64,000 bases of DNA from Escherichia coli (lineage in GTDB: Bacteria; Pseudomonadota; Gammaproteobacteria; Enterobacterales; Enterobacteriaceae): the NCBI RefSeq assembly GCF_044324785.1, contig NZ_CP172127.1. One strand, 5' to 3'. The first letter of the stretch is position 1. Every line of letters begins with the position of its first letter. Positions 8,758 through 58,760 of this stretch are shown here, piece by piece. Under the pieces are notes generated by a model. That model ran no database searches. It was not told the origin of the DNA and saw only the letters and a list, made by a program, of their open reading frames with translations. The translations under genes and the position numbers were made by a program.

Positions 8758-8899
8758 GGTAAAGCCCTCACCGAAGCGAGGGCTTGAAGGAGAAGGGTTA
8801 TGATGCGACTTGTCATCATACTGATTGTACTGTTACTCATAAGTTTCCCAGCTTATTAACAGTCAGTCTCAGGGGAGGAGTCATCCTCCCTTACCCTTA
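8758..8899 (-). ncRNA. sibC: SibC antisense sRNA (antitoxin of ibsC); boundaries approximate
   Basis: Minus-strand TTGACA (8929-8934) - 17 nt - TAATTT (8906-8911) promoter; GCCCTC..GAGGGC hairpin plus UUU at 8764-8783; ~140 nt fully overlapping ibsC on opposite strand. Confidence 0.65.
8800..8859 (+). CDS. ibsC: type I toxin, 19-aa hydrophobic peptide IbsC (MMRLVIILIVLLLISFPAY)
   Basis: ATG ATG CGA CTT GTC ... TAT TAA read directly; GAAGGAGAAGG RBS 4-14 nt upstream; location in serA-ygfA intergenic region. Confidence 0.8.
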   Translation: MMRLVIILIVLLLISFPAY

Positions 8900-8959
8900 C
8901 TCACTAAATTAGGTTAAAGAATCAACGATGTCAATCAGGGCGATGCAGGTGTGTCGCCC

Positions 8960-9582: not shown

Positions 9583-9766
9583 GGAATCTCCGAGATGCCG
9601 CCGCAGGCTGTAACCCTTGAACCCTTGGTTCAAGGTGAATGTGTCGTCGCAGTTTTAAGGCTTCTCGGACGGACCGAGCATGCTCACCAACCGCGGAGCG
9701 CCACATTCTTGTGGTATGAAATATCGGCTCAGGGGACTGGCCCGCTTGCGAACATCTCAGAGAAAT
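9583..9766 (-). ncRNA. ssrS: 6S RNA (RNA polymerase sigma70-holoenzyme regulator), ~184 nt
   Basis: Reverse complement reads ATTTCTCTGAGATGTTCGCAAGCGGGCCAGTCCCCTGAGCCGATATTTCATACCACAAGAATGTGGCGCTCCGCGGTTGGTGAGCATGCTCGGTCCGTCCGAGAAGCC..., matching the 6S RNA sequence as I recall it; immediately upstream of ygfA. Confidence 0.9.
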
Positions 9767-35714: not shown

Positions 35715-36202
35715 TGAAATCGTTAATTATCGTTAATCCGGCTGACTGTATTGGCTGCCGTACTTGTGAAGTGGCCTGTGTGGTCGCTCACCCTTCAGAA
35801 CAGGAGTTGAATGCCGATGTCTTTTTACCCCGGCTGAAGGTACAGCGACTGGACTGCATCAGTGCGCCGGTGATGTGCCATCAGTGTGAAAACGCCCCTT
35901 GTGTTGGCGCTTGCCCCGTGGGAGCGCTGACGATGGGCGAGCAGGTGGTGCAGGCCAATTCTGCCCGTTGTATTGGCTGTCAGAGTTGCGTCAGTGCGTG
36001 CCCGTTTGGGATGATAACCATTCAGTCGTTGCCGGGGGATACCCGGCAACAAATTGTGAAATGCGATCTCTGTGAACAGCGGGAAGAGGGGCCTGCCTGC
36101 GTTGAATCTTGCCCGACACAGGCGCTGCAGTTGCTTACTGAAAGAGAACTCAGGCGAGTCCGCCAGCAGCGTATTGTTGCCAGCGGTGAGAATCCTCTCT
36201 GA
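35714..36202 (+). CDS. ygfS: 4x[4Fe-4S] ferredoxin-type electron-transfer protein, 162 aa
   Basis: Four Cys clusters ([55 protein letters not shown]); start overlaps ygfT stop. Confidence 0.85.
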
Positions 36203-36208
36203 AAGAAA

Positions 36209-36232
36209 TCTCCGCGCTGAAAGGCGCGGAGA
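36209..36232. terminator. bidirectional terminator between convergent ygfS and ghxQ
   Basis: Perfect 9-bp stem TCTCCGCGC-tgaaag-GCGCGGAGA; U-run on minus side. Confidence 0.65.
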
Positions 36233-36237
36233 ATCTA

Positions 36238-37605
36238 TTAGATTGCCCAACCACCCGCGTAAAATGCGACCAGTGCGGCAGTAATGATCACCGTACCAAT
36301 ATTCAGCTTTTGCCATTCGCGTGCAAAGACGCGGCCTACGACCAGTGTCACAAAGCCCAGCATAATACCGGTAACGATATTACAAGTCAGAACGATGAAC
36401 ACGGCACACACCAGGCCAGCCATAGCGTCAATAAAATCATTGAAATCCAGCTTCGAGACGTTACTTAACATCAGCAAACCTACGTACATCAGAGCGGGTG
36501 CAGTGGCGTAACCAGGGATCAAAAATGACAGCGGTGATAAGAACAAAATCAGCAGGAATAACGCCCCCACTACGGTTGCGGTCAACCCTGTTTTACCCCC
36601 GGCGGCGGTTCCTGCCGCTGATTCGATATAAACCGCTGCGGGCGCTGCGCCCACCAGGCCGGAGAATATTGAACTTACTGAGTCACTGGTCAGGGCTTTG
36701 CCGCCGTTGATGATCTGGTTGTCTTTATCCAACAAATTCGCCTGACCGGCGACGGCACGGATGGTGCCAGTGGCGTCGAACACTGCGGTCATCACCAATG
36801 CTAGTACACTCGGAAGTACAGTTGGCTGGAGTGCGCCCATAATATCGAGGCTGAAAATCAGAGACTTACCATCTTCGCCAGTCAGGCTTGGCATCGCCAC
36901 CAGACCGTGGTATTTCACCGCTGGATCAAAGATTAAGCCGATGATCGAGATGGCAATAATCACCAACAAGATCCCGCCGGGTACGCGGCACTTTTCCAGA
37001 CCGAAGATGACCGCCAGCCCCAGCAAGCTCATCATCACCGGGAAGGAGGTAAACGCACCGAGCGCCACCGGCAAGCCTTCAATCGGGTTTTTGATAACCA
37101 TTCCCACACCGTTAGCAGCAATCAGCAGCAGAAACAGGCCGATACCGATACCTGTACCGTGAGCGATACCCATGGGCAAATTACGTAAGATCCAGGTACG
37201 CACACCGGTTACGGAAATGGCGGTGAAGATGACGCCCATCAGAAAGACCGCGCCCAGTGCGACAGGAACGCTAATTTGTTGCCCGAGTACCAGACTGAAT
37301 GCGGTAAACGCCGTCAAGGAAATCGCGCAACCAATCGCCATTGGCAAATTGGCCCATAACCCCATCAGCAACGAGCCGAAGCCCGCGACCAGACAGGTGG
37401 CAACAAACACAGCTGCGGGAGGAAAACCTGCTTTGCCCAGCATTCCCGGAACGACGATAACGGAATAAACCATGGCCAGAAAGGTCGTTAAGCCAGCCAG
37501 TACTTCCTGACGAACGGTACTGCCACGAGCGGTAATTTTAAAATAATTATCCAGCGCGCCCTGTGGCTTTGGTGCGTCCGGTGTTTGTAGGATGTCTCCA
37601 GACAT
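36238..37605 (-). CDS. ghxQ: NCS2-family guanine/hypoxanthine permease, 455 aa
   Basis: Full ORF, polytopic membrane protein, AzgA-like; synonym ygfQ. Confidence 0.8.
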
Positions 37606-37640
37606 AATGATGTCCTCACGAGGATGTTAAAGTTTTATTA

Positions 37641-38960
37641 TTAGTTGCGTTCGTACACCAGACGACCATCAACGTAGGTGCGGTAGATCGAACGGTCATC
37701 GCCCAACGTCATCATCACGAACAATTTGTCGACTAAAGAAACAGAGTTGTCATAGCGCAGCTGCTGTAGCGGAGTGGCGGTGGGTTCCATCACCACGAAA
37801 TCAGCCTCTTTGCCAGGTAAAAAGTTGCCAATCAAATCGTCAAGGCCCAGAGATTTCGCTCCGCCGAGCGTGGCCAGGTAAAATGCTTCATATGCCGAGA
37901 GGCGATAGCCTTGTAGTTGCAACACTTTGTAGGCTTCGTTTAGCGTTTGCAGCATGTTGAAAGTTGTTCCGGCACCGATATCCGTTCCCATGCCCACTTT
38001 GACTTTCTTCTGCCATGCTTTTTTCAAGTTGAATAAGCCGCTGCCGAGGTAAAGGTTGGAGGTCGGACAGAAAGCAATGCTGGATTTGGTTTCGCTGAGA
38101 CGATCCCACTCTTTTTCTTCGAGATGGACGCAGTGAGCAAAGACACAGTTTTTACCTGTCAGGCCATACTGGTGATAAACATCCAGATAGCCATCATGTT
38201 CAGGATAAAGTTCTTTCACCCAGGCAATTTCATCTTTGTTTTCACAGAGATGGGTATGTACCCACGTATCCGGATATTCTTCTTTCAGGCGTTGCGCCAT
38301 CGCCATCTGTTCAGGTGACGATGTTGGGGCGAAGCGTGGTGTAATGGCATATAACAGACGGCCATTTTTATGCCAGCGTTCGATCAGTTCTTTGCTTTGG
38401 TGATAGCTACTTTCCGCCGTGTCGAGCAGATAATCTGGCGCATTACGGTCCATCATCACTTTACCGGCAATCATTCGCATATTGATATGACTGGCGGCTT
38501 CAAACAACGCATCCACAGATTGTGGATGAACCGTACCAAACACCAGTGCCGTAGTCGTACCGTTACGTAAAAGCTGCTTGATGAAGAACGCCGACATTTC
38601 GCGGGCGTACTCTAAATCCTCATAACGACGTTCAGTAGGGAAGGTGTGTTTATTCAACCACTCCAGCAATTGCTCACCATAGGCTCCCACCATTTCACTT
38701 TGCGGATAATGGATATGTGTATCGACAAAGCCCGGTACTATCAGTTTGCCGCGATAGTCGCGCACGCGAATGGTGTCAGGAATTTGATGCTTTCCGTTTT
38801 CCCATTCGCCAAACCATTCCACTTTTCCCTGTTTAATAAGTAATAAACCATCCTCAATAAACCGCAGCGCAGAGGCAATCTCTTCCGGGTTATCGACCGT
38901 ACGGGTGACATCAATAAAACTGCCTCGTACCGCTTTTAACGTGTGTTCTCCTGACATCAT
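37641..38960 (-). CDS. guaD: guanine deaminase (amidohydrolase superfamily), 439 aa
   Basis: ORF 37641..39080 trimmed to MMSGEHTLKAVRGSF; metal-binding VDTHIHYPQ. Confidence 0.9.
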   Translation of the reverse strand: MMSGEHTLKAVRGSFIDVTRTVDNPEEIASALRFIEDGLLLIKQGKVEWFGEWENGKHQIPDTIRVRDYRGKLIVPGFVDTHIHYPQSEMVGAYGEQLLEWLNKHTFPTERRYEDLEYAREMSAFFIKQLLRNGTTTALVFGTVHPQSVDALFEAASHINMRMIAGKVMMDRNAPDYLLDTAESSYHQSKELIERWHKNGRLLYAITPRFAPTSSPEQMAMAQRLKEEYPDTWVHTHLCENKDEIAWVKELYPEHDGYLDVYHQYGLTGKNCVFAHCVHLEEKEWDRLSETKSSIAFCPTSNLYLGSGLFNLKKAWQKKVKVGMGTDIGAGTTFNMLQTLNEAYKVLQLQGYRLSAYEAFYLATLGGAKSLGLDDLIGNFLPGKEADFVVMEPTATPLQQLRYDNSVSLVDKLFVMMTLGDDRSIYRTYVDGRLVYERN

Positions 38961-38974
38961 TGACTCCTTTACTG

Positions 38975-40375
38975 TTAATCCATCTCTTCCGCTGAGGTAA
39001 TACCAGGCAGAACGTTTTCCTGTCGGTAGCCACCAGGGAGGATAATATTTAATAAAATCGCAGTTAACCCGCCAGCACAAATAGGGTTTTCAACTAGTAC
39101 ATAAATAGAGGCTGGCAATATTTTAAAAATTTCGGGATCGTAGGAGACGCCAAGCCCTAAACCTAAAGAAGTGGCGACAATAAGTGTTTCTCGGCGCTTT
39201 AAACCGTTGGTGATGATGATGCGAATCCCTGCGATGGCAATCATGGAAAACATCAACGTCATTGCGCCTCCCAGAACTGCCGAGGGAATGGTCGTGAAGA
39301 AGCCGCCAATCATCGGAAACAAACCGAGGATAACCAGCATTACCGCGATGGTTCGCCCGACATAACGTGAAGCGACGCCAGTCATCTGAATAACCCCATT
39401 ATTTTGCGCAAACGTGGTTAAGGGTAATGAACCGACAGCGGAGGCGATAACAGAAACCAGACCATCTGCCAGCACGCCGCCTTTCAGTCGGGACTGATAC
39501 TCTTCCCCCTGAATGGGGCGGCGAGAAACCATTGCCGTGGCGGTGATATCGCCGACAGCTTCCAGCACGCTAAGCAAATAAATCGTGCCAACCACCAGGA
39601 ACTGATGGAAGCTGAAACTAAACCCGTATTTGAACGGATGCGGGATGGTGATTAACGGCAAATTGCGCATACTGCTGAAATCCACCATACCCAGGCATAA
39701 CGACGCGATATAACCGACGCATAGCCCAATGGCGATCCCTCCCATGCGTAGCAACGGACTGCGACAGCAGTTAAAGCCGATCACCACAATCAAAACCAAT
39801 AAACCAACGCCGAGATGTTCGTAATTGCCGAACGTACCGCTGCTTTTGGCTGCAAATCCTCCACCAAAATCGATAATGCCGACTTTAATCAGGCTTAAGC
39901 CGATCATCAGTACCACAATACCGCTGACAGTAGGCGTAATAACCCGACGTAAATAGGGCAGGATAAAAGAAGAGCCGACAACCAGAAATGCGCCAACGAA
40001 GGAGACGCCGAAGAGCGACGACATGATTAACTCTTCGTGAAAACCGTCGCTTTTCATGCTGCTGCCCAGCGCAATCATGACCGTAACAAATGAAAAATTG
40101 ACTGACTGAATTGAGAGAAGACCAGAACCGACGATGCCGTAGCGGTTTACTTGTAACCAGGTACCAATACCAGAGGCGATCATCGCCATAGAAACCAGAT
40201 AAGCGGTTGTTTCAGCGGAAAGCTGTAAGGCCGCACCCACGATTAACGCGGGGGTTACCATCGGAACGAAAATTGCCAACAGATGGGTAATGGCACCAAC
40301 GAGAGCCTGATGAAAGGGAGGGCGATCCTCCAGTTCAAATATAAGGTCAGAACCTGCATGGTTTATATCAGACAT
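38975..40375 (-). CDS. xanQ: NCS2-family xanthine permease, 466 aa
   Basis: ORF 38975..40588 trimmed to ATG at 40373-40375 with AGGAG RBS (MSDINHAGSDLIFELEDRPPFHQAL). Confidence 0.9.
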   Translation of the reverse strand: MSDINHAGSDLIFELEDRPPFHQALVGAITHLLAIFVPMVTPALIVGAALQLSAETTAYLVSMAMIASGIGTWLQVNRYGIVGSGLLSIQSVNFSFVTVMIALGSSMKSDGFHEELIMSSLFGVSFVGAFLVVGSSFILPYLRRVITPTVSGIVVLMIGLSLIKVGIIDFGGGFAAKSSGTFGNYEHLGVGLLVLIVVIGFNCCRSPLLRMGGIAIGLCVGYIASLCLGMVDFSSMRNLPLITIPHPFKYGFSFSFHQFLVVGTIYLLSVLEAVGDITATAMVSRRPIQGEEYQSRLKGGVLADGLVSVIASAVGSLPLTTFAQNNGVIQMTGVASRYVGRTIAVMLVILGLFPMIGGFFTTIPSAVLGGAMTLMFSMIAIAGIRIIITNGLKRRETLIVATSLGLGLGVSYDPEIFKILPASIYVLVENPICAGGLTAILLNIILPGGYRQENVLPGITSAEEMD

Positions 40376-40499
40376 CCCTTCACTCCTTTTAAAGTAAATT
40401 TGATCATCTGAATCAGTAAAATAAATTCCCACGAATTTGGGGCGCAGGACGCCTTGAGAACGGCTTATCTCATTTTCGCAGTCACTATTTAGTCGTCGT

Positions 40500-40530
40500 T
40501 CAAACAGAGAAACAGGCCGCCGAAGCGGCC
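40500..40530 (-). terminator. hairpin GGCCGC-cgaa-GCGGCC just downstream of xdhD stop, U-rich tail on minus strand
   Basis: Inverted repeat read directly; possible partial terminator before xanQ. Confidence 0.4.
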
Positions 40531-40539
40531 ATTTATTAT

Positions 40540-43410
40540 TTATATTTTTTCTAGCGCGGTGAGTATTTTCTCCGGTGTGAAATGCCATTCGCGTAACCAG
40601 ATGCCGCAGGCATCGTGAATTGCGGTAGCAATCGCCGGAGCTGCGCCATTTACACCGATTTCCGAGATCGATTTCGCCCCGAACGGGCCGACTTTATCGT
40701 CGCTCGGCACCAGCACAGCGCGGAAATCACGCGGAATGTCACCAATTTTCGGTGCGCCGTAACTGCGTAAATCACGCGTTAACGGGTGACCTTCGGCGTC
40801 ATAAATGATCTCTTCGCTCATACTGTGGCCGATAGCTCGCAGGGTAGCACCGTAGATTTGTCCCAATGCTAATTCCGGGTTGACCGGTGTACCGCAGTCC
40901 AGCAAGGCGTAGAATTTATCCAGGCGGATTTCACCCGTACGCGTATTGACGGCAACTTCAGCGAAGTTCGCGCCATACGGGAAGGCGAAATCAGGCGTGA
41001 TATAACTGCCAGTTCCCACCAGTGAACCAAAGCCGGTGCCGGTTTCGCCTTTATGGGCAATATCCCCGAAACTAACTTCGCCTTTCTTGCCGCGAACGAC
41101 GCCCGGCGTTGCTAGTTGAACATCTGCCACTGGCTCACCCAACATTTGTGCACCGTGGAACAGAATTTTCTCCCGCAGATTTTCTGCTGCCAAACGCGCC
41201 GCGTTACCCGAGAAGCAAGTACCGGACGAGGCATATGCGCCTTTATCAAACAACGCATGATCGGTATCACCGGAGATAACATGCACGTCCTGCGGTGGGC
41301 AGTGCAGCACTTCTGCTGCCAGTTTCGTCACCACAGTATCCAAACCAGTACCAATATCCGCACCGCCAGAATGAACGATAAAGGTGCCGTCCGATTCCAG
41401 TTTGATCATGCAGTTAGCCTGATCGATATCCGGGATCCCTGATTTCTGCATGATAATGGCGACGCCACGACCGATGTGCCAGTCACCGTTTTGTGGTTTT
41501 GGTGAAGACCATTGGATCATCTCGCGACCCTGACGCAGGATCTCTTCCAGTGCGCAGCTGGCGGCGGAAGGAACGGAGGTCGGCGCTTTACCTTCACCGA
41601 TTGCACCGAGAATTTTCAGCTCTTGCCCTTCGTGTACCCGGTTACGTTCGATAATTTCCAGTTGGTCGATCTGTAACTGTTCAGCCAGTTCCGCTAATGC
41701 CATGGTGATAGCGAAGTTACCTTTCGGTGCGCCATAACCCTGATAAGCACCATTTGGGCAAATGTTGCTGTAGTAGGTGGTGACCTGAAAATCGACGTTA
41801 TCGCACGGATATAACGGCAGCGACAGCGCCGGTCCGTTACACGGTACGGTGAGTGAGTGGTTGCCGTAAGGGCCAGTGTTGGCGCGGAAATCCATCTTCA
41901 CTGCCGTCAGGCGACCATCTTTTTTCGCTCCCAGTTTGACGGTGACTTTCGCGACGTGACGAGAGGTGTTAGCAATAAACTCTTCTTCACGGGTGTAGCG
42001 GAACAGTACCGGACGCCCGGTCACGCAGGTTGCCCAGGCGCACACTTCTTCCAGCAGGATGTCCTGTTTGGAACCAAAACCGCCGCCAACTCGCTCTTTA
42101 ATGACATGAACTTTATGCTGTTTCATGCCCACGAGGCGCGCGACCTGGCGGCGTAAGTGCCATGGTACCTGGGTGGAGGCGTGGATAACCAGACGATCGC
42201 CGTCCATACGGGTAAAGCAGATATGAGTTTCAGTCGGGCACTGCTGCGCCTGCGTTGAGTTATAGGTTCGCTCAATGATCACATCGGCATCGGCAAAGCC
42301 TTTGTCCATATCGCCGATATGACCATGAATACTGGCGGCGATATTTTTACGGGGGCGAGAACCGATCGGGAAGTTGATGATCATATGCTCGCCGCGCTGG
42401 GCTGCATGGCTGTTATCGTCTTCCAGAGTATCTGGCGCACCAGCAACATACACCACCGGTTCATCGTGCACGACAGGCGCATCTTCCGCCATTGCTTCGT
42501 CGATCGACATTACAGGTTTAAGCACTTCATATTCAACGTCGATGAGCTTCAGTGCTTCGAGCGCAATTTCTTCACTTTCTGCGACGACCGCAGCAACGCG
42601 ATCGCCGACGTGACGCATTTTCTTGCCGAACATACGGCGGTCAAGCGGTGACGGTTCCGGTGCGCTCTGACCGCCCGGGGTATAGTAGATATCCGGGCAA
42701 TTCAGGTGAGTAATAACGTGAACAACGCCCGGTAAGGCTTCAGCTTTGCTGACATCCAGATGAGTAATCAGTGCGTGAGCGTGTGGGCTACGTAACATTT
42801 TAATGACGCAGGCGTCAGCCGTTACGCGGTCTTCAACATAGCAGGGTTTCGCCTGCACCATTTTCGCGGCATCAGTTTTAGGATAATGCTTACCAATGAC
42901 TTCAAGGTCATCGCGGAAAGTTGGAGCTATATCAATGGTGGCCTGCGGATTATTTTTACGTGCAACCGCCAGTTCAATGACCTGATAGTATTGTTGCCAG
43001 CCTGCATCGCGGCTGAACAAACCAGAAAGCGCGTCGTCGATCTCTTCGCGGGTCGGTGCGGCAATGCGATCGAGAAGATCGGTGATAATCAGAGCCGCAG
43101 CTGGATCGTTATAACCAGACTGCACCACGCCAACATCAACCATTGCCTGTTGAACCAGACTTAACTCGTTCCATTTGCCCAGAGACTCTGCGGTACGAAT
43201 ATCTGCCTTCTCTAACTGTGCGGCGATAAGCAAGGACGCGTTAACGATATTACCGTTACAGATAATTGCGTCAGAACCGGCAAACCCGAATCCATCATCG
43301 CTGTTGCGTACAGAGTGCATTCCCATGTTAAACAACAGCTTTTGCACGTTTTCGCCTGGATTAACGGTTAGCTCCTGAGGCGCGCCATTTAAAGTAAAGT
43401 GGATGATCAT
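40540..43410 (-). CDS. xdhD: xanthine-dehydrogenase-family molybdopterin subunit with N-terminal degenerate (cysteine-less) 2Fe-2S-like domain, 956 aa
   Basis: Full ORF; N-terminal 150 aa align by eye to XdhC but lack its Cys motifs; large Mo-binding body. Confidence 0.85.
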   Translation of the reverse strand: MIIHFTLNGAPQELTVNPGENVQKLLFNMGMHSVRNSDDGFGFAGSDAIICNGNIVNASLLIAAQLEKADIRTAESLGKWNELSLVQQAMVDVGVVQSGYNDPAAALIITDLLDRIAAPTREEIDDALSGLFSRDAGWQQYYQVIELAVARKNNPQATIDIAPTFRDDLEVIGKHYPKTDAAKMVQAKPCYVEDRVTADACVIKMLRSPHAHALITHLDVSKAEALPGVVHVITHLNCPDIYYTPGGQSAPEPSPLDRRMFGKKMRHVGDRVAAVVAESEEIALEALKLIDVEYEVLKPVMSIDEAMAEDAPVVHDEPVVYVAGAPDTLEDDNSHAAQRGEHMIINFPIGSRPRKNIAASIHGHIGDMDKGFADADVIIERTYNSTQAQQCPTETHICFTRMDGDRLVIHASTQVPWHLRRQVARLVGMKQHKVHVIKERVGGGFGSKQDILLEEVCAWATCVTGRPVLFRYTREEEFIANTSRHVAKVTVKLGAKKDGRLTAVKMDFRANTGPYGNHSLTVPCNGPALSLPLYPCDNVDFQVTTYYSNICPNGAYQGYGAPKGNFAITMALAELAEQLQIDQLEIIERNRVHEGQELKILGAIGEGKAPTSVPSAASCALEEILRQGREMIQWSSPKPQNGDWHIGRGVAIIMQKSGIPDIDQANCMIKLESDGTFIVHSGGADIGTGLDTVVTKLAAEVLHCPPQDVHVISGDTDHALFDKGAYASSGTCFSGNAARLAAENLREKILFHGAQMLGEPVADVQLATPGVVRGKKGEVSFGDIAHKGETGTGFGSLVGTGSYITPDFAFPYGANFAEVAVNTRTGEIRLDKFYALLDCGTPVNPELALGQIYGATLRAIGHSMSEEIIYDAEGHPLTRDLRSYGAPKIGDIPRDFRAVLVPSDDKVGPFGAKSISEIGVNGAAPAIATAIHDACGIWLREWHFTPEKILTALEKI

Positions 43411-44186
43411 ACGGCTTCCTCCCCAGCCTGTTGGCAGTCGGCATACAGGTCGGCTACCAGAACTCCCGTGATATAGCGTTTATAGGCCACGCTGCCCCGC
43501 AAATCTTCCTGCGGGAAAATGGCGTTGGCGACAGCCTGTTCAAGTGCATTGCCTTCCAGATTTTGTTTTTCAACATCGTGCAGACGCAGGGCTTTACTGG
43601 CGACGCCATCCAGCGCAATTCGCATACCGTCGTGGTCTGTCATTGCAACGGCTGCCGTCACGACGGTTAAACCTGCCTGAGAACGGCTAATTTTGCGGGT
43701 CGCACAGGTGCGATACGGATCTTTAATGATAATTTCGGTTAGCAGGCGATCGCATGGGCAGGCCAGGTACTCTTCGATTGACAGTGTTTCGCCATTGCCA
43801 AAAACCAGTTCAGCATCCAGTGCCAGCAGGACGGGAAGCAGCACAGACTCTTCCTGCCGGGCGGCGATTTCACCACCAATGGTCGACTGATTACGAACAT
43901 GGCGAGAGTAGACAAAGCCGAGGGCTTCACGCAGTGCTGCAGGAATAAATCGCGCATCACGCAGTGGCTGCAAGCGAGACATTGCGCCAATCCGCAGTGC
44001 ACCGTTATCCCAGTCAACCCAGTCCAGTTCCAGATCCTGTAAGGAAATGGCAATCTTTTTATCGGTACGGGTTGGTGTAGCGTTGAGTTTGCTGCCCCCG
44101 GCGAACCAGACGGCTTCATCCTGGTAGCGGCGCTTCAGTTCCAGCGCCTGTTCGACAGAGTCGGGCCTGAAAAATTGTTCAATCAT
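43407..44186 (-). CDS. ygfM: FAD-binding subunit (CO-dehydrogenase flavoprotein-like) partner of XdhD, 259 aa
   Basis: Full ORF; 4-nt overlap with xdhD start; FAD-binding fold AVWFAGGSKL. Confidence 0.8.
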   Translation of the reverse strand: MIEQFFRPDSVEQALELKRRYQDEAVWFAGGSKLNATPTRTDKKIAISLQDLELDWVDWDNGALRIGAMSRLQPLRDARFIPAALREALGFVYSRHVRNQSTIGGEIAARQEESVLLPVLLALDAELVFGNGETLSIEEYLACPCDRLLTEIIIKDPYRTCATRKISRSQAGLTVVTAAVAMTDHDGMRIALDGVASKALRLHDVEKQNLEGNALEQAVANAIFPQEDLRGSVAYKRYITGVLVADLYADCQQAGEEAV

Positions 44187-44236
44187 CTTCTTTCCTTATT
44201 TAACCCTCTTCCCAGCGGGAAGAGGGTATTTGTCAT

Positions 44237-45565
44237 TTATGCCAACGCATCCATCCGACGCCACATACTGGCAGCGGCTTTTCTGGCTTGCGCATAAATG
44301 GAATCGCAATCGAAGTTAAACTGACGGTCTTCATAGACCATCACGCCATTGACCATCACGCTATGAACGCTGCCTGAGCCCATACCGAAAGCGATATGCC
44401 CGGCGATATTGTCTGCCAGCAGCGGTGTCGGCGAGTTGTAATCGCAAATGGTTAAATCGGCTTTGTAACCGGCTTCCAGAAGGCCAAATTTCGCGCCAAA
44501 GTTGCGGCTCATCAGTTCGTTGCCGTTAGCCAGTGCTTTGGCAAAACTGTCAGGCCACAGCGGACCACCCGCATCGCGATGTTTAAAGAAGGCAAATTTC
44601 ATCTCTTCAAACATGTCCGAACCAATGCCGTCCGTTCCCAACGCCAGATTGCGGATGTCGCTAAGGTGATGGTTGTAGCCGACATGGTTGTTCATGTTTG
44701 AACGGGCGTTATGCACCAGGAACGCATCGCGCTGATTGAGTAGGGCGATGTCATCTTTCGACAAGTACAGCCCATGAGCGACCAGCGTTTTGCTGTCGAT
44801 GAGATCGAATTGCGCCAGTCGTGCCAGCAGGTCTTTGCCGTACCAGTGGTGACTGTAGGAAACGTCATAAAGGTCTTCCGCAGCGTGAATATGCAAACCA
44901 CGACCTGTGGCTTTCACGGCTTCACGCAGCATCTCCAGACCGGCATCCGGCACGGTAAACGGCGCGTGAGCGCCGATATGTGCTTCCACCAGATACGGCT
45001 CGGTTGCTGCTTTCTTCGCCTCATCAATCTGACGGGCGAAGCGGATGTTTTCTTCTACACCTTCCTGCAACTCTTTGATGCCGTTGTTACGGTCAGTAGT
45101 TTCAAAACAGGTCATCGCGCGCAGGCCAACTTTTAAAAATGCGTTGCGCAATGTGGAGAGCGACCCGCCGATATACGCCGGAGAGGCATGGTGATCGATA
45201 ACCGATGTACATCCGCTCTTAATTGCTTCCAGGGTACAAATCAGTCCGCTGTAATAGAGCGACTCTTCATCAAGGGCGCGATCGAGTCGCCACCAGAGAT
45301 TTTTCAGCGTTGAGATGAAATCCGGGCAGGGGGCGATGTTTGCCATAATTCCGCGGGACAGCCCCGAGTAAAAATGGTTGTGCGAGCAGACAATTCCCGG
45401 CATCACAATCCGACCATGCATCTCTTTGTAGCTGGCATCGGGGTAGCGTTGCGTCAGGGCATCGCCGATAGCGACAATCACATCATTTTCGATGGCGATA
45501 TCAACGCCTTCCTGCACTTTCGCCGGGTGTAACTGCACTGCGGTGACATTCTTCAGAATCAACAT
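44237..45565 (-). CDS. ssnA: amidohydrolase-superfamily hydrolase (chlorohydrolase/aminohydrolase-like), 442 aa
   Basis: Metal-binding HxH (VCSHNHFYSG); full ORF. Confidence 0.85.
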   Translation of the reverse strand: MLILKNVTAVQLHPAKVQEGVDIAIENDVIVAIGDALTQRYPDASYKEMHGRIVMPGIVCSHNHFYSGLSRGIMANIAPCPDFISTLKNLWWRLDRALDEESLYYSGLICTLEAIKSGCTSVIDHHASPAYIGGSLSTLRNAFLKVGLRAMTCFETTDRNNGIKELQEGVEENIRFARQIDEAKKAATEPYLVEAHIGAHAPFTVPDAGLEMLREAVKATGRGLHIHAAEDLYDVSYSHHWYGKDLLARLAQFDLIDSKTLVAHGLYLSKDDIALLNQRDAFLVHNARSNMNNHVGYNHHLSDIRNLALGTDGIGSDMFEEMKFAFFKHRDAGGPLWPDSFAKALANGNELMSRNFGAKFGLLEAGYKADLTICDYNSPTPLLADNIAGHIAFGMGSGSVHSVMVNGVMVYEDRQFNFDCDSIYAQARKAAASMWRRMDALA

Positions 45566-45567
45566 GA

Positions 45568-48500
45568 TTACACCTCCACGCGGCCCAGCAGATAATGATG
45601 ATGCTGGTGGACATGGCTAATGATGCGGCACATATCGTTCAGCTCCGGTGGTACGTTGTTGAACTGACCTTCGCTGTCGATGTTTAACACCCAGCTTTGG
45701 TTATTCAGACGTACTCGTACCCGGCAATCTTCCACAAGGAAGCCTGGGTTGCTGCTGTTATCAAAGTCTTGCGACAGGCTGAAGACGGTGATTTTGTCTT
45801 TGTACGGTTTACCGTTCCACGGACAGAACTGAGCGCAGTTGCCGCATTCGTTACAGTAAGCGTCGAGGTGCAGCGTCTGGAAACGGTTCTGGAAGCCAGG
45901 GACCGCAATGGAGACGTTGGCGCGGTTCGGGCAGACATCCACACACTTGCTGCAAACGTAGTTACATTCAAGGCAGCGAGCAGCTTCCTGCGCGACAAAC
46001 GCATCACGATCGTCACTGTTCACCAGCGTGATAGAGATATCGCCTTTACGTTGATAGATTTCCGCCGGATTGACGTTGTTCCAGTATTTATCGTTCTGGT
46101 GGGAACGGATATTTTCCCGACTAAGGATGGCATCGGTCGCCCGACGCGCGGTTCCGACAGCAGCGACAATGGAGGATGGTCCGCGCTGTACGTCGCCGAT
46201 CATAAAGACGTCAGTCAGACGAGTTTCGCCATTATGGTCGACGTCTGGCCAGCCGTTTTTGTCCAGCGGCACGCCCATCGCATTCAGGGCTTCAGTATCC
46301 TGCTGTTCACCAATGGCGGTGATCAGGCTGTCTACATGCAGTGTTACTGTTTCGTTGGTTTCAACCGGACGGCGACGACCTTTCTCATCAGGTTCGCCAA
46401 GCGACATAACGCGCAAGGTTAAGGTGCCATCAGCATCGAAACGTTCCGGATTATTCAGGAAACGGAACTCCACGCCGTCGTGCAACGCTTCTTCATACTC
46501 TTCGCGCCATGCTGGCATCTCTTGCAGTGAACGACGGTAAACGACCGTTGCTTTTTCTACGCCTGGAACGCGTAACGCCGCACGAGCGCAGTCCATTGCC
46601 GTGTTACCCGCCCCGACAACGACCACATGTTTGCCCAGCTTGAGCGCTGTGCCCTTGTTGTATTCACGCAGGAAGGGGAGTGATTTCCAGACATTTTGGT
46701 TGTCGCCCGCCAGTTTCACACCGCTATTTTTATCAGTGCCGGTGGCAATCAGAACATAGTGGAAGCCCTGATTTTTTAACTGTTCAACGGTCAAATCGGG
46801 TGAGCAGCCATACTCAAATTTCACGCCGTGAGCGGCAACAAAATCGATATCGTGCTGAATTAACTCTGCAGGAATACGGAACTGAGGAATGATATTTTTC
46901 ACCACGCCGCCCGCATTGGCTTCGCGTTCAAACAGCGTAACCGGATGGCCCGCTCTGGCAAGGAAGTAACCTGCTGCCAGACCCGCCGGACCTGCACCAA
47001 TCACGGCAACCGGATGGCGTGAACCAGAACCGGCTGGTTTGTGCCAGCGTTGCTTATATTCATCCCAACCTTTTTCCAGCGCGACTTTTTTCAGTTCGCG
47101 GATATTCAGCGCACTGTCGTAATCCAGGCGGGTACAGTTGTATTGGCACTGGTGATCGCAAATATGACCGGTAATGGCGGGCAGGGCGTTGCGTTGGTAG
47201 ATGAGTTCCAGTGCGTCGGCATAGCGGTGTTCGCCAAGCAGACGGATGTATTCCGGAATATCCTGTTTAATGGCGCAAGCAGTAACGCACGGTGCAACGT
47301 AGCAGTCGGTCAGCGGCAGGTCTTCTGCCACTTCAATACGCTCTTCTGGCTTCCAGTGTTTCTGAGTGTATTCCATGGTTAACGCGTCTGCTGCCAGTTT
47401 GTTCAGTCGTTCGACGTCAACATGGTCAAGCCCCCAGGCGTCGGAGCCTTCCAGCTCGCGCATGCAGGCACTTAAGCGCAGATAGCCGCCAGGTTTCAGC
47501 AGGTCGGTTGCCATCGTGATAGGGCGAATACCAGTATCAAAAATATCGCGGATAGTCAGCTGACTGGCACCACCGGAATAAGAAATGGGCAGTTTGCCGT
47601 CAAAGGCGCGAGAGAGAACTGCTGCAACATTGATGGAGAGCGGGAACAGCGCACGGCCTGACATATACATCTCTTCACCAGGCAGTGCGCCTTTATTGTT
47701 GATGGTGCCGAGAGTGTTAGTCAGTTTTACGCCAAAGCCGAGTGATTTTTCTTTTGCCAGTGCCATCAGACGTTCCAGCATTTCCAGTGCTTGCGTCAGC
47801 TTGAGGTCGTGATCAAATGACTCTTCTTTTAAGCCTATGTAACCGAAACCGCAGACATCGAGGATCTCACGAACACGCGCGTACCCCAGTAAGGTCGGGT
47901 TGAGTTTCACAAAGGTATTGAGCCCTTTTTCTTCCAGCATGTAGCGGCAAATGGCTTCGATTTCATGCGGAGGACAGCCGTGCATGGTGGAGAGGGTGAC
48001 GCCCTGCACCATGCTGGTGGGGATGCGAGCGGGTAAGGCTTGCAAGCTTTCGCGTTTTTCCTGCAATCCGTGGCGGGCTAAAAATGCGTCATCCTGGAGT
48101 AATTTATTCAGCGTATCGCGATATTGAGCGAATTTCGGATGGTCAGATGCGTCCATCATATTGTCGATGAACTGTTGCATCGGCGGTTGCTTAATACCTT
48201 CGAGGTTGTAACCGACGCTCATATTAAAGATGAACGATTTACCGGAATCAGAAGGCTGGAACATCGCTTCGAGAAGGTGCAGGGCAAACCAGGCTTTGAG
48301 GTATTCATCCCAGGCTTTAAGCAGGGTAAATTCGGTGGACCATTCGGTGTTAAAGCACTCGTCTTCGGCATCAATACAGGGCTTTTCCAGCTCCAGGCGG
48401 TCAAGAATTTGGACGGTTTTTAGTTCGATGAAGCGTCCGCCAGTCAGCCAGGAAGTGACAATATTTTGCGCGAGCTGCGTGTGCGGGCCAGCGGCAGGGC

Positions 48501-48666
48501 CGACGGGAGTGGCACAGGTTTCACCGAAGACGCTAACAGTTTTACCTTTTACGGGTGAGTAAAACTGTTGCTCGGGAATACCAAAGATTGAGCGTTGTTG
48601 TTGGTATTCATCAAATATGCGCGTCAAAAGTTCCTCAAACGGAATGGGACGCATAATATCCCCCAT
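45568..48666 (-). CDS. ygfK: large Fe-S flavoprotein oxidoreductase (GltD/dihydropyrimidine-dehydrogenase-like with 4Fe-4S clusters), 1032 aa
   Basis: Dinucleotide fingerprints [28 protein letters not shown] and VVVVGAGNTAMDCARAAL; ferredoxin motifs CLECNYVCSKCVDVCP and CNECGNCAQFCP; AGGAG RBS. Confidence 0.85.
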   Translation of the reverse strand: MGDIMRPIPFEELLTRIFDEYQQQRSIFGIPEQQFYSPVKGKTVSVFGETCATPVGPAAGPHTQLAQNIVTSWLTGGRFIELKTVQILDRLELEKPCIDAEDECFNTEWSTEFTLLKAWDEYLKAWFALHLLEAMFQPSDSGKSFIFNMSVGYNLEGIKQPPMQQFIDNMMDASDHPKFAQYRDTLNKLLQDDAFLARHGLQEKRESLQALPARIPTSMVQGVTLSTMHGCPPHEIEAICRYMLEEKGLNTFVKLNPTLLGYARVREILDVCGFGYIGLKEESFDHDLKLTQALEMLERLMALAKEKSLGFGVKLTNTLGTINNKGALPGEEMYMSGRALFPLSINVAAVLSRAFDGKLPISYSGGASQLTIRDIFDTGIRPITMATDLLKPGGYLRLSACMRELEGSDAWGLDHVDVERLNKLAADALTMEYTQKHWKPEERIEVAEDLPLTDCYVAPCVTACAIKQDIPEYIRLLGEHRYADALELIYQRNALPAITGHICDHQCQYNCTRLDYDSALNIRELKKVALEKGWDEYKQRWHKPAGSGSRHPVAVIGAGPAGLAAGYFLARAGHPVTLFEREANAGGVVKNIIPQFRIPAELIQHDIDFVAAHGVKFEYGCSPDLTVEQLKNQGFHYVLIATGTDKNSGVKLAGDNQNVWKSLPFLREYNKGTALKLGKHVVVVGAGNTAMDCARAALRVPGVEKATVVYRRSLQEMPAWREEYEEALHDGVEFRFLNNPERFDADGTLTLRVMSLGEPDEKGRRRPVETNETVTLHVDSLITAIGEQQDTEALNAMGVPLDKNGWPDVDHNGETRLTDVFMIGDVQRGPSSIVAAVGTARRATDAILSRENIRSHQNDKYWNNVNPAEIYQRKGDISITLVNSDDRDAFVAQEAARCLECNYVCSKCVDVCPNRANVSIAVPGFQNRFQTLHLDAYCNECGNCAQFCPWNGKPYKDKITVFSLSQDFDNSSNPGFLVEDCRVRVRLNNQSWVLNIDSEGQFNNVPPELNDMCRIISHVHQHHHYLLGRVEV

Positions 48667-48748
48667 AACCCTCTCCTTAGCTTATACAGATATCATTGAG
48701 TGACCGGTGTTGAGAAATCCGGTGGTTTAGGGGGATAGAGCAACAATC

Positions 48749-48764
48749 GCACCACTCTTGCCAG
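48749..48764 (-). promoter_or_regulatory. candidate sigma54 promoter upstream of ygfK (CTGGCAAG-N4-GTGC)
   Basis: Minus-strand CTGGCAAGAGTGGTGCG read by eye; GG/GC spacing correct; ~85 nt upstream of ygfK ATG. Confidence 0.35.
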
Positions 48765-48817
48765 GTTTGGCGGGAAATATAAAAAAATGTGAGGCGGCTC
48801 GAAACTTAGGAGCTTTT

Positions 48818-48833
48818 TGTGAATGAACTCACA
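48818..48833. promoter_or_regulatory. perfect CRP core site TGTGA-N6-TCACA
   Basis: tttTGTGAatgaacTCACAgg read directly in ygfK upstream region. Confidence 0.5.
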
Positions 48834-48987
48834 GGTGCCAAATGAGAATTAAAATCACTCCTGAAAATTATTATTGCCAGCCCATTTATCACTTTTTCTC
48901 TTTTCTCAAAATCAGTGATTCCTTATCATTATGATAAAGAGAACTGGAAGGGTTAAATATTTGAACGCAATCGTTTAACTACGTTTT

Positions 48988-49566
48988 CTAAATTTCAGTA
49001 TACCTTTTTTTCGCTGTAATAAAGTCGTCCGGAGTATCAATATCTAAAATTATTTCTGCATTTTCTATTTCGACGGAATAATGTTCTCCCATAAGGAGTG
49101 CCTGACGCATATTGGTGATATTGGGACGCTGGATTGCCTGCATCAGGCATGGCTTTGACACTAAAATCGGATGGCCGGGAATGCCATTATGGAGTGGCAG
49201 TATTGCGCCATCATTTCGTAACGACCAGATTTTCCTAAAAATATCGATGGTGAGGGTAGGCATGTCACCGTGGGTGAGAAAACAATATTCTGTTTGTACC
49301 GCGGGTACTGCGGCCTTTACTGATGTTAGTAAACCCTGTGCATAATCTGGGTTATGGATAATAGTGATATTGCTCTGGTTCGCATAACGCTTGTGCAGTT
49401 CATTACCACGATAGCCGGTGACTAAAATAATTCGGCTACAAAACTGCAACGCATTTTTGATACTTGTATCAAGAATTGTTCCCTGTTGCCAGGGTAACAT
49501 CATTTTCCATTGCCCCATTCTTGATGATAATCCGGCAGCGGTAATTATACAGTCGATGGCTGACAT
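48988..49566 (-). CDS. mocA: molybdenum cofactor cytidylyltransferase (MobA-like nucleotidyltransferase), 192 aa
   Basis: N-terminal ITAAGLSSRMG nucleotidyltransferase motif; full ORF. Confidence 0.85.
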   Translation of the reverse strand: MSAIDCIITAAGLSSRMGQWKMMLPWQQGTILDTSIKNALQFCSRIILVTGYRGNELHKRYANQSNITIIHNPDYAQGLLTSVKAAVPAVQTEYCFLTHGDMPTLTIDIFRKIWSLRNDGAILPLHNGIPGHPILVSKPCLMQAIQRPNITNMRQALLMGEHYSVEIENAEIILDIDTPDDFITAKKRYTEI

Positions 49567-49668
49567 AGTGGTTCCATTATTTATAGGGGCTAATAACGCC
49601 TGATAATTGCGTTACTTCCTGATGGATTAAGTTGGGGATAATTTATCCCAGAGAGGTCATAAAGACTC

Positions 49669-50439
49669 GTGAAAAGTATAGTTGACCCATCGGCATTATT
49701 CATTGATTTAGGCGCGCAGAAACGTCCCACTGTGATTTCTGTTGTTGGGGCTGGGGGGAAAACCAGCTTGCTTTTTTGGCTGGCAGAACTGATCCAGGCT
49801 AGCGGCAGGCGTGTGTTAATCACTACGACGACACATATGTTTATGCCAACGTCTCACTGGCCCGTGGTTTTCTGTCGTGATCCCGCCATGCTTCCTCATG
49901 CGTCTCTTACATCCCCCATTTCATTTTGTTTTCACAGCTGGAAAGCGAACCAGGGAAAAGTGCAGGGATTTATGCCAGAAGCGATTGATGCACTGGTGCA
50001 ACGACCAGAGTGTGACGTAATTCTCATTGAGGCAGATGGCTCGCGTGGAATGCCGTTAAAAGCGCCTGATGAGCACGAACCTTGCATACCCAAAAGCAGT
50101 TGCTGCGTGATTGCTGTGATGGGAGGACATATTTTGGGCGCGAAAGTGAGCACAGAAAATGTCCATCGCTGGTCGCAGTTTGCTGATATTACCGGGTTAA
50201 CACCTGATGCAACCTTGCAACTGAGCGATCTCGTTGCGCTGGTTCGCCACCCTCAGGGCGCATTTAAAAACGTACCGCAAGGTTGTCGGCGAGTCTGGTT
50301 CATTAACCGTTTTTCTCAATGTGAGAATGCGATTGCGCAAAGCGAGCTCCTTCAACCGCTGCAACAACACGACGTAGAGGCAATCTGGCTGGGCGATATA
50401 CAAGAACATCCTGCAATCGCGCGCAGATTTGTGAATTAG
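49669..50439 (+). CDS. yqeC: P-loop protein YqeC (selenium-dependent molybdenum hydroxylase accessory family), 256 aa
   Basis: GTG start; Walker-A-like VVGAGGKTSLL. Confidence 0.8.
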   Translation: MKSIVDPSALFIDLGAQKRPTVISVVGAGGKTSLLFWLAELIQASGRRVLITTTTHMFMPTSHWPVVFCRDPAMLPHASLTSPISFCFHSWKANQGKVQGFMPEAIDALVQRPECDVILIEADGSRGMPLKAPDEHEPCIPKSSCCVIAVMGGHILGAKVSTENVHRWSQFADITGLTPDATLQLSDLVALVRHPQGAFKNVPQGCRRVWFINRFSQCENAIAQSELLQPLQQHDVEAIWLGDIQEHPAIARRFVN

Positions 50440-58284: not shown

Positions 58285-58760
58285 AAAGTCCCGGTAGTGG
58301 AATGACAGGCAAAGAGGTTTATTTCACTGTGACTTGCCAAAAGTGATTGGTCTTTTCACAGCTATACCTGGGACTAACAATAACTATGCCAGAATTATCC
58401 AAGCGGCTGCAAAAGACTAATTTGACGGGTAATGTGTGGGGTTGATCACAAATTGATGCCAGCTTCTGGTTGTTTGTAAAATACGAAAACGTTTGGCTTT
58501 TTTTATCGCGTTATTTATTTGCTGCTAAGTATCAGAAATAAGATAAAGGGGCAGGTTATCCCTCGTCAGTTTGATAAACTCACCGCCGTAATTCTCATAT
58601 TGATATAGAAATGTGATATCTCTTCCATAATTTCATTAGAAAGTGATAAAAATCTTATGTTTTTATCAAAGCCAATTTCGTCTGAGTTAATATCATCATG
58701 ATCTGTGAACCATCAACGTCTTCAATGATCGACTTTTAAGTAAGTCTGGAAGGTAAAGCT

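Follow-up and report, generated by a model that had tools for sequence, protein, structure and literature searches.

The closest described system to the locus treated here is the anaerobic, reductive degradation of uric acid in Escherichia coli K-12, in which the protein YgfK takes part. The present work concerns the ygfK gene in a stretch of 64,000 nucleotides (nt) of E. coli DNA (contig NZ_CP172127.1, assembly GCF_044324785.1; the whole stretch is called the window). As reported by Liu et al. (bioRxiv 10.1101/2025.04.24.650524), K-12 YgfK purified anaerobically requires NADPH, with NADH being ineffective, and selectively converts 2,8-dioxopurine from a mixture of xanthine isomers. The enzyme was named DOPOR, that is, NADPH:2,8-dioxopurine oxidoreductase. 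In the same account, ygfK mutants of Clostridium sporogenes accumulate 2,8-dioxopurine, and in those of E. coli a compound of equal mass builds up, which was first taken for xanthine.

The neighboring steps are described by Li et al. (bioRxiv 10.1101/2025.05.19.654654; PMC12507026). In detail, XdhD-YgfM with NADH reduces urate to isoxanthine (2,8-dioxopurine) without YgfK, by removing the 6-oxo group. Reconstituted YgfK shows 4Fe-4S clusters by UV-visible spectroscopy and electron paramagnetic resonance. YgfK and SsnA together with NAD(P)H convert isoxanthine to ureidomethyl-hydantoin, of which the delta-ygfK strain makes none, and HyuA, YgeW, YgeY, and YgeX complete the pathway, whose end products are pyruvate, ammonia, and carbamoyl phosphate.

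The open reading frame (ORF) at 45568-48666 of the window is, with high confidence, ygfK of E. coli, the gene for the 2,8-dioxopurine (isoxanthine) reductase of this pathway, an enzyme dependent on NADPH. The function of YgfK is already known from the two 2025 preprints, and the finding is not new. An initial annotation, made from the letters of the window, had proposed a reductive saturation of the ring before its hydrolytic opening by the adjacent amidohydrolase, and this order is shown experimentally in both preprints. The substrate in these reports is 2,8-dioxopurine and not xanthine or urate, which the initial annotation had named for assays. The place of the molybdenum (Mo) enzyme in the pathway was also not foreseen, since XdhD-YgfM acts before YgfK according to Li et al., although it is encoded downstream.

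45568-48666, minus strand: ygfK coding sequence, very probably NADPH:2,8-dioxopurine oxidoreductase (ORF list and translation, annotated homologue, TIGR03315)

The ORF begins with ATG, consists of 1032 codons and a stop, and fills the interval exactly on the minus strand. The length and position given in the initial annotation were exact, and the strand, which it did not state, is minus. Read on the plus strand, the interval is full of stops, and the two antisense ORFs within the gene (plus strand, at 45697-46422 and at 46070-46540) result from mechanical ORF calling and have no support. An AAGGAG Shine-Dalgarno sequence is located 6 nt 5' of the ATG. There is a second in-frame ATG at codon 5 (48654-48666, minus strand), and several homologues start at the position of this Met5 (MRPIPF...). 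Met1, the annotated start, has the better-spaced AAGGAG of the two.

The DNA is 99.5% identical to the annotated ygfK of E. coli strain 19KM1831 by megablast. At the protein level, 1025 of the 1032 amino acids (99.3%) are shared with YgfK of K-12 MG1655 (b2878). The seven substitutions from the window to K-12 (Q221H, K423R, V627I, V708I, H777L, S964A, and E999K) are all conservative, and none is located inside an invariant motif. As these seven non-motif positions are the only differences between the protein of the window and the K-12 protein used in the assays, the published results transfer directly to the former. The NCBIfam model TIGR03315 (Se_ygfK; IPR017701) matches residues 2-1027 over model positions 1-1012 and scores 1781.8 bits, where the cutoff is 835.3. 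The linkage to ssnA and to the Mo hydroxylase gene xdhD, which is a trait of this family, is also found in the window.

The distribution of the locus was examined by megablast of 44000-49600 against 5426 complete E. coli genomes, 5185 of which match. At least 80% of this query is covered in 5161 of the 5426 genomes (about 95%), and most matches are 95-99% identical. Identity of at least 99% over 44000-49600 is found in only 3 of the 5185 matching genomes, and strain 042 is among the best matches. At the ygfK locus, the window thus belongs to a minority lineage.

The modules of YgfK, in their order along the protein, are the following:

47347-48666, minus strand: residues 1-440, predicted (beta/alpha)8 barrel of the dihydropyrimidine dehydrogenase (DPD) and dihydroorotate dehydrogenase type, presumed flavin mononucleotide (FMN) and substrate site (AlphaFold2 model and Foldseek)
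47071-47310, minus strand: residues 453-532, Fer4_20 domain, as in DPD domain I and the GltD N-terminus (PF14691, 2.5e-16)
46150-47013, minus strand: residues 552-839, flavin adenine dinucleotide (FAD) and NADPH Rossmann domains (Pfam Pyr_redox_2 PF07992, 1.9e-42)
45802-45987, minus strand: residues 894-955, ferredoxin-type module of 2x[4Fe-4S] with nine invariant Cys
45571-45792, minus strand: residues 959-1032, family-specific C-terminal subdomain

Thus, the order of the modules is barrel, Fer4_20, FAD, NADPH, and ferredoxin. The Pfam search, which the initial annotation had proposed, gave Fer4_20, Pyr_redox_2, and a weak match of Fer4_7 at residues 900-950; residues 1-450 and 955-1032 gave no Pfam match. 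The two dinucleotide-binding fingerprints noticed earlier are present, namely VIGAGPAG at residue 557 and VVGAGNTA at residue 685. A third GxGxxG match, at residue 273, is inside the barrel and not in a Rossmann context. The second fingerprint is followed by VVYRRS (residues 707-712) after the second Rossmann strand, where the NADH-dependent PreT has CVAREE. The presence of VVYRRS rather than CVAREE fits the NADPH specificity reported by Liu et al.

There are four Cys clusters in YgfK and not two, a result within the initial claim of at least two 4Fe-4S motifs. The first two, C455-x4-C460-x3-C464 and C503-x3-C507-x3-C511, provide the six invariant Cys of the Fer4_20 domain. The third is C898-x2-C901-x3-C905-x2-C908-x3-C912-P, and the fourth is of the canonical form C938-x2-C941-x2-C944-x3-C948-P. 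The search for homologues covered 1.84 billion representative proteins and gave 3272 matches at E<1e-30, from which 44 full-length homologues with 32-57% identity were aligned. All 15 cluster Cys are conserved in 44/44 of them, and as they remain invariant at such low identity, the motifs are far beyond chance. Cys97 and Cys231 are conserved in 89% of the same homologues.

Sequence matches in PDB are confined to residues ~436-892 of YgfK. They include NfnA 9N5U (1.6e-70), the FDH-linked subunit 8OH5_C, NfnI/NfnB, GltD, and residues 63-499 of pig DPD (2e-30). Together with the Pfam domains, these matches bear out the resemblance to DPD and to the small subunit of glutamate synthase seen in the initial annotation, and the view of YgfK as a multi-domain Fe-S flavoprotein composed of DPD- and GltD-type modules is supported. 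The C-terminal subdomain (~70 residues) has three or four strands and a long helix, ends in a His-rich tail (HVHQHHHY), and gave no structural match.

The barrel region of YgfK gave no match in PDB by sequence. Its structure was predicted from an alignment of 42 sequences of the N-terminal region, and the AlphaFold2 model reached a mean predicted local distance difference test (pLDDT) of 89.1 and a predicted template modeling score (pTM) of 0.90. In the Foldseek comparison of this model with PDB, chains of pig DPD take all of the top 39 places (probability 1.00, E between 6e-10 and 4e-8), and dihydroorotate dehydrogenases of class 2 come next. Sequence identity to DPD is only 14-16%. Liu et al. 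describe the large N-terminal domain as one of unknown function; the DPD-like predicted fold indicates that it is a DPD-type barrel for FMN and substrate, covering the first ~450 residues. A statement on structural modeling in Li et al. (bioRxiv 10.1101/2025.05.19.654654) agrees with this assignment.

The invariant motifs of the barrel are GPAAGP, ELKTVQ, KPCIDA, STMHGCPP, VKLNPT, KLTNTL, SGRALxP, SYSGG, and GIRPIT. When the N-terminal family alignment was compared with the single sequence of E. coli PreA by hhalign, the match was weak (E 0.016, probability 2.8%), and in it the motifs in the second half of the barrel pair one by one with the strand-end motifs of PreA. Cys231, invariant in close homologues, is located after strand 4 in the beta4-alpha4 loop. 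It is the obvious candidate for the proton donor, and its equivalence to Cys671 of DPD is putative.

Six distant full-length homologues with 32-38% identity (P0155, P0181, P0198, P0234, P0253, and P0259) keep all 15 cluster Cys. The barrel motifs KPCIDA and STMHGCPP are missing from the same six proteins, which, judged by these motifs, probably reduce a different heterocycle.

Certain points weigh against the assignment of YgfK as a DPD-like 2,8-dioxopurine reductase. YgfK alone gave no product according to Li et al., whereas Liu et al. report turnover with NADPH only. Li et al. write NAD(P)H in their results and NADH in their discussion, and the immediate product of YgfK, UA-3, is described as unstable and with a provisional structure. 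In addition, the PDB sequence search gave no experimental structure of YgfK, the content of FMN and FAD and the intramolecular path of the electrons are drawn from modeling, and the weak hhalign match puts Cys231 opposite a PreA position other than the catalytic one.

The name under which the protein is found in NCBIfam and RefSeq is "putative selenate reductase subunit YgfK," according to which it would serve as electron donor to a selenate-reducing Mo enzyme. The report behind this name is a transposon-mutant study by Bebien and colleagues from 2002. Liu et al. trace the annotation to an earlier report (their ref 25). The selenium-cofactor genes yqeB and yqeC, which by annotation adjoin the locus, could be taken in the same sense, but they are explained by the selenium-dependent Mo hydroxylases of the urate pathway. 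The scan with Pfam and NCBIfam found no molybdopterin domain in the 1032 amino acids of YgfK, and the protein carries a substrate-type FMN barrel of its own. Moreover, in the 2,8-dioxopurine assay of Liu et al., selenate was given as an additive and not as a substrate, and it was neither required nor stimulatory. This role is, therefore, very unlikely, and the name finds no support in the domain content or in the assays presented in the two preprints. The same evidence leaves without support the idea in the initial annotation that the selenate link hints at a broader reductase chemistry. It is quite improbable that YgfK, alone or with XdhD-YgfM, also reduces selenate or selenite and supplies reduced selenium to YqeB/YqeC for the selenium-dependent Mo hydroxylases; if true, such a side activity would account for the connection with selenate reduction seen in the older genetics.

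The strongest sequence relatives of YgfK (NfnA, the FDH-linked subunit, NfnB, and GltD) are electron-transfer subunits, and YgfT and AegA of E. coli share its Fer4_20 and Pyr_redox_2 domains. On these grounds, YgfK could be regarded as an electron-input module of the NfnB/GltD kind which feeds XdhD-YgfM and does not act itself on a purine. This is extremely unlikely, since XdhD-YgfM reduces urate with NADH in the report of Li et al. and does not need YgfK, purified YgfK turns over 2,8-dioxopurine in that of Liu et al., and the DPD-type substrate barrel has invariant motifs resembling those of an active site. The last alternative, a second, fused DPD for uracil and thymine, has in its favor the full set of DPD modules and the closest structural relative of the barrel, and deserves next to no credence because PreT-PreA already performs this reaction in E. 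coli, the barrel is only distantly related to that of DPD at the identity given above (14-16%), and both the gene context and the metabolite of the mutants, as reported, are purine-specific.

As shown in the literature, XdhD-YgfM takes the 6-oxo group off urate and gives 2,8-dioxopurine, YgfK dearomatizes the pyrimidine ring of the latter by reduction, and SsnA, encoded 2 nt downstream, opens the reduced ring hydrolytically. For YgfK as the reductase of 2,8-dioxopurine, the following mechanism is proposed. By analogy with DPD, NADPH would reduce FAD in the central Rossmann module, and the electrons would cross as many as four [4Fe-4S] clusters, of which Fer4_20 and the ferredoxin module near the C-terminus have two each. 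As in DPD, this path would probably run across a dimer. It would end at the FMN of the N-terminal TIM barrel, and there a hydride would be transferred to the substrate, with Cys231, conserved and part of the beta4-alpha4 loop, as the probable source of the proton.

The gene order at the locus is mocA, upstream, followed by ygfK-ssnA-ygfM-xdhD-xanQ-guaD-ghxQ, all on the minus strand and as stated in the initial annotation. The partners of YgfK and the elements of the transcription unit are located as follows:

44237-45565, minus strand: ssnA, amidohydrolase opening the pyrimidine ring of the YgfK product (annotation, ORF, published function)
43407-44186, minus strand: ygfM, FAD subunit of the XdhD-YgfM reductase which converts urate to 2,8-dioxopurine (annotation; published co-purification and activity)
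40540-43410, minus strand: xdhD, Mo/Fe-S subunit making the substrate of YgfK (annotation, published function)
48739-48755, minus strand: sigma-54 promoter element GTGGTGCGATTGTTGCT of ygfK, with -24 GG and -12 GC (identical to site OS31 of chromatin immunoprecipitation sequencing, ChIP-seq)
48818-48833, no strand assigned: perfect core of the CRP consensus, TGTGA-N6-TCACA (TGTGAATGAACTCACA), the sole perfect match in the window
40515-40530, minus strand: hairpin GGCCGC-TTCG-GCGGCC (GGCCGCTTCGGCGGCC), followed by the T-rich TGTTTCTCTGTTTG (terminator scan and sequence)

The sigma-54 element, a 17-mer, ends 72 nt 5' of the ygfK ATG and is identical in K-12. In the ChIP-seq study of sigma-54 (PMC4591121), site OS31 with the sequence GTGGTGCGATTGTTGCT is assigned to ygfK, and further sites are given at xdhA and ygeW, with a weak one at ygfT. 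Having its own ChIP-seq-mapped promoter, ygfK heads a transcription unit, as the initial annotation had held. A generic search for the sigma-54 consensus with two mismatches gave 12 matches against 15.6 expected and gains meaning only by comparison with the motif from the published ChIP-seq data. Another candidate, TGGCAAG-N4-GTGC, located 9 nt upstream, was dropped in favor of the published site. The scan of 36000-49800 for sigma-70 promoters was uninformative (14 sites against 14.6 expected). Transcription would proceed from the dedicated sigma-54 promoter, presumably activated by the neighboring sigma-54 activator YgeV and modulated by CRP.

The CRP core, identical in K-12, is located upstream of the sigma-54 motif by ~78 nt and of the start site predicted for sigma-54 by ~95-100 nt. 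As a predicted CRP site, it fits the glucose repression of the pathway, which is reported by Li et al. A CRP-like site with one mismatch is found at 58435-58450 in the ygeV-ygeW spacer, and a native Crp site in this spacer is mentioned by Li et al.

The motif AGTGATAAA occurs only at 48885-48893 (minus strand), upstream of ygfK, and at 58642-58650 (plus strand), in the ygeV-ygeW spacer, that is, twice against 0.28 expected. Both copies are upstream of sigma-54 promoters, and the region upstream of xdhA has TGTGATAAAT. Inverted repeats of TGATAA/TTATCA are present in all three regions, namely upstream of ygfK, in the ygeV-ygeW spacer, and upstream of xdhA. AGTGATAAA could be a site for the activator YgeV, though only as a lead, because the motif is AT-rich and the copy upstream of ygfK reads, with a mismatch, ATTGATAAA in K-12. 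At ygeW, the sigma-54 element CTGGCATAGTTATTGTT (58376-58392, minus strand) differs in two positions from the K-12 ChIP-seq motif CTGGCACACTTATTGTT.

At the other end of the unit, ssnA starts 2 nt past the ygfK stop, and the terminator-like, GC-rich hairpin is found 10 nt past the stop of xdhD, in the gap of 165 nt between xdhD and xanQ. The hairpin is probably the end of the ygfK transcription unit, possibly a leaky one. The literature search on transcripts across the xdhD-xanQ junction gave only a review, the one paper of the searched library to name the operon, which writes it as ygfK-ssnA-ygfM-xdhD and lists xanQ, guaD, and ghxQ separately. In view of the hairpin, the gap, and this four-gene naming, the seven-gene extent given to the operon in the initial annotation is unverified. 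A boundary after xdhD, separating a unit of four genes rather than seven from xanQ-guaD-ghxQ, is probable.

The 50 nt that separate ssnA from ygfM contain a perfect stem of 11 bp, ACCCTCTTCCC-GCT-GGGAAGAGGGT, at 44203-44227. The stem lacks a U-tract on the sense strand and could be an element of mRNA processing or stability, or of translational coupling. Elsewhere in the window, Rfam matches a Sib antitoxin RNA at 8784-8934 (minus strand, 136.5 bits) and the 6S RNA ssrS at 9583-9766 (minus strand, 139.8 bits), both ordinary features of E. coli.

YgfK performs the committed dearomatization step of the anaerobic uric-acid pathway by which gut bacteria get rid of host urate. The relevance of this pathway to hyperuricemia, gout, and engineered uricolytic probiotics is already recognized in the 2025 literature. 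The present analysis adds an independent confirmation, at the level of the predicted fold, of the DPD-type flavin barrel at the N-terminus, the count of 15 invariant cluster-ligand Cys, and a C-terminal subdomain without a structural match. It also adds the perfect CRP core beside the mapped sigma-54 promoter and the likely boundary of a four-gene operon.

Compared with the known systems, YgfK of K-12 is the same gene in another strain, and its neighbors, sigma-54 promoter, and CRP core are shared with the window. The NfnB/GltD/NfnA modules (9N5U, 4YLF, 5JCA, and 2VDC) align with residues 441-850 of YgfK (E 1e-70 to 1e-46). These proteins, as well as YgfT and AegA, have in common with YgfK the Cys pattern of Fer4_20 and the YRRS motif of the NADPH type. 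However, proteins of the NfnB/GltD/NfnA type pass electrons to a separate partner, whereas YgfK has the substrate barrel and the ferredoxin module in one chain. The same pathway step as that of YgfK is assigned by Li et al., on comparative grounds, to UacX, the clostridial isoxanthine reductase of the PydA type (C. difficile). In their description, it has only the FMN barrel, without FAD or NADPH domains, and is probably ferredoxin-dependent.

Pig DPD (1H7W/1GT8) and the bacterial PreT-PreA have the same five modules as YgfK, namely Fer4_20, FAD, NADPH, FMN barrel, and the 2x[4Fe-4S] ferredoxin. The chemistry is also alike, being an NADPH-driven reduction of a uracil-type ring which prepares the step of an amidohydrolase, though the substrate of YgfK is a purine, unlike that of DPD. 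In the structure of pig DPD, the four clusters are ligated by 15 Cys and one Gln, with seven Cys in the Fer4_20 domain and eight in the ferredoxin module; in YgfK, the split is six and nine. The order FeS-FAD-NADPH-barrel-FeS of DPD is not found in YgfK, where the barrel (1-440) precedes Fer4_20. Residues 63-499 of pig DPD align to 436-843 of YgfK, which shows that the barrel of DPD follows the Rossmann module, unlike in YgfK. YgfK has a much shorter active-site loop (STMHGCPP), and the C-terminal subdomain of ~70 amino acids is extra to DPD. The permuted layout, the ninth invariant Cys of the ferredoxin module (Cys905), and the unmatched C-terminal subdomain may reflect a wiring of the clusters or a docking of partners unlike that in DPD. 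Taken together, YgfK resembles DPD in the way it works without being an orthologue of it, in view of the permuted order, the 14-16% identity of the barrel, the shorter loop, and the extra subdomain.

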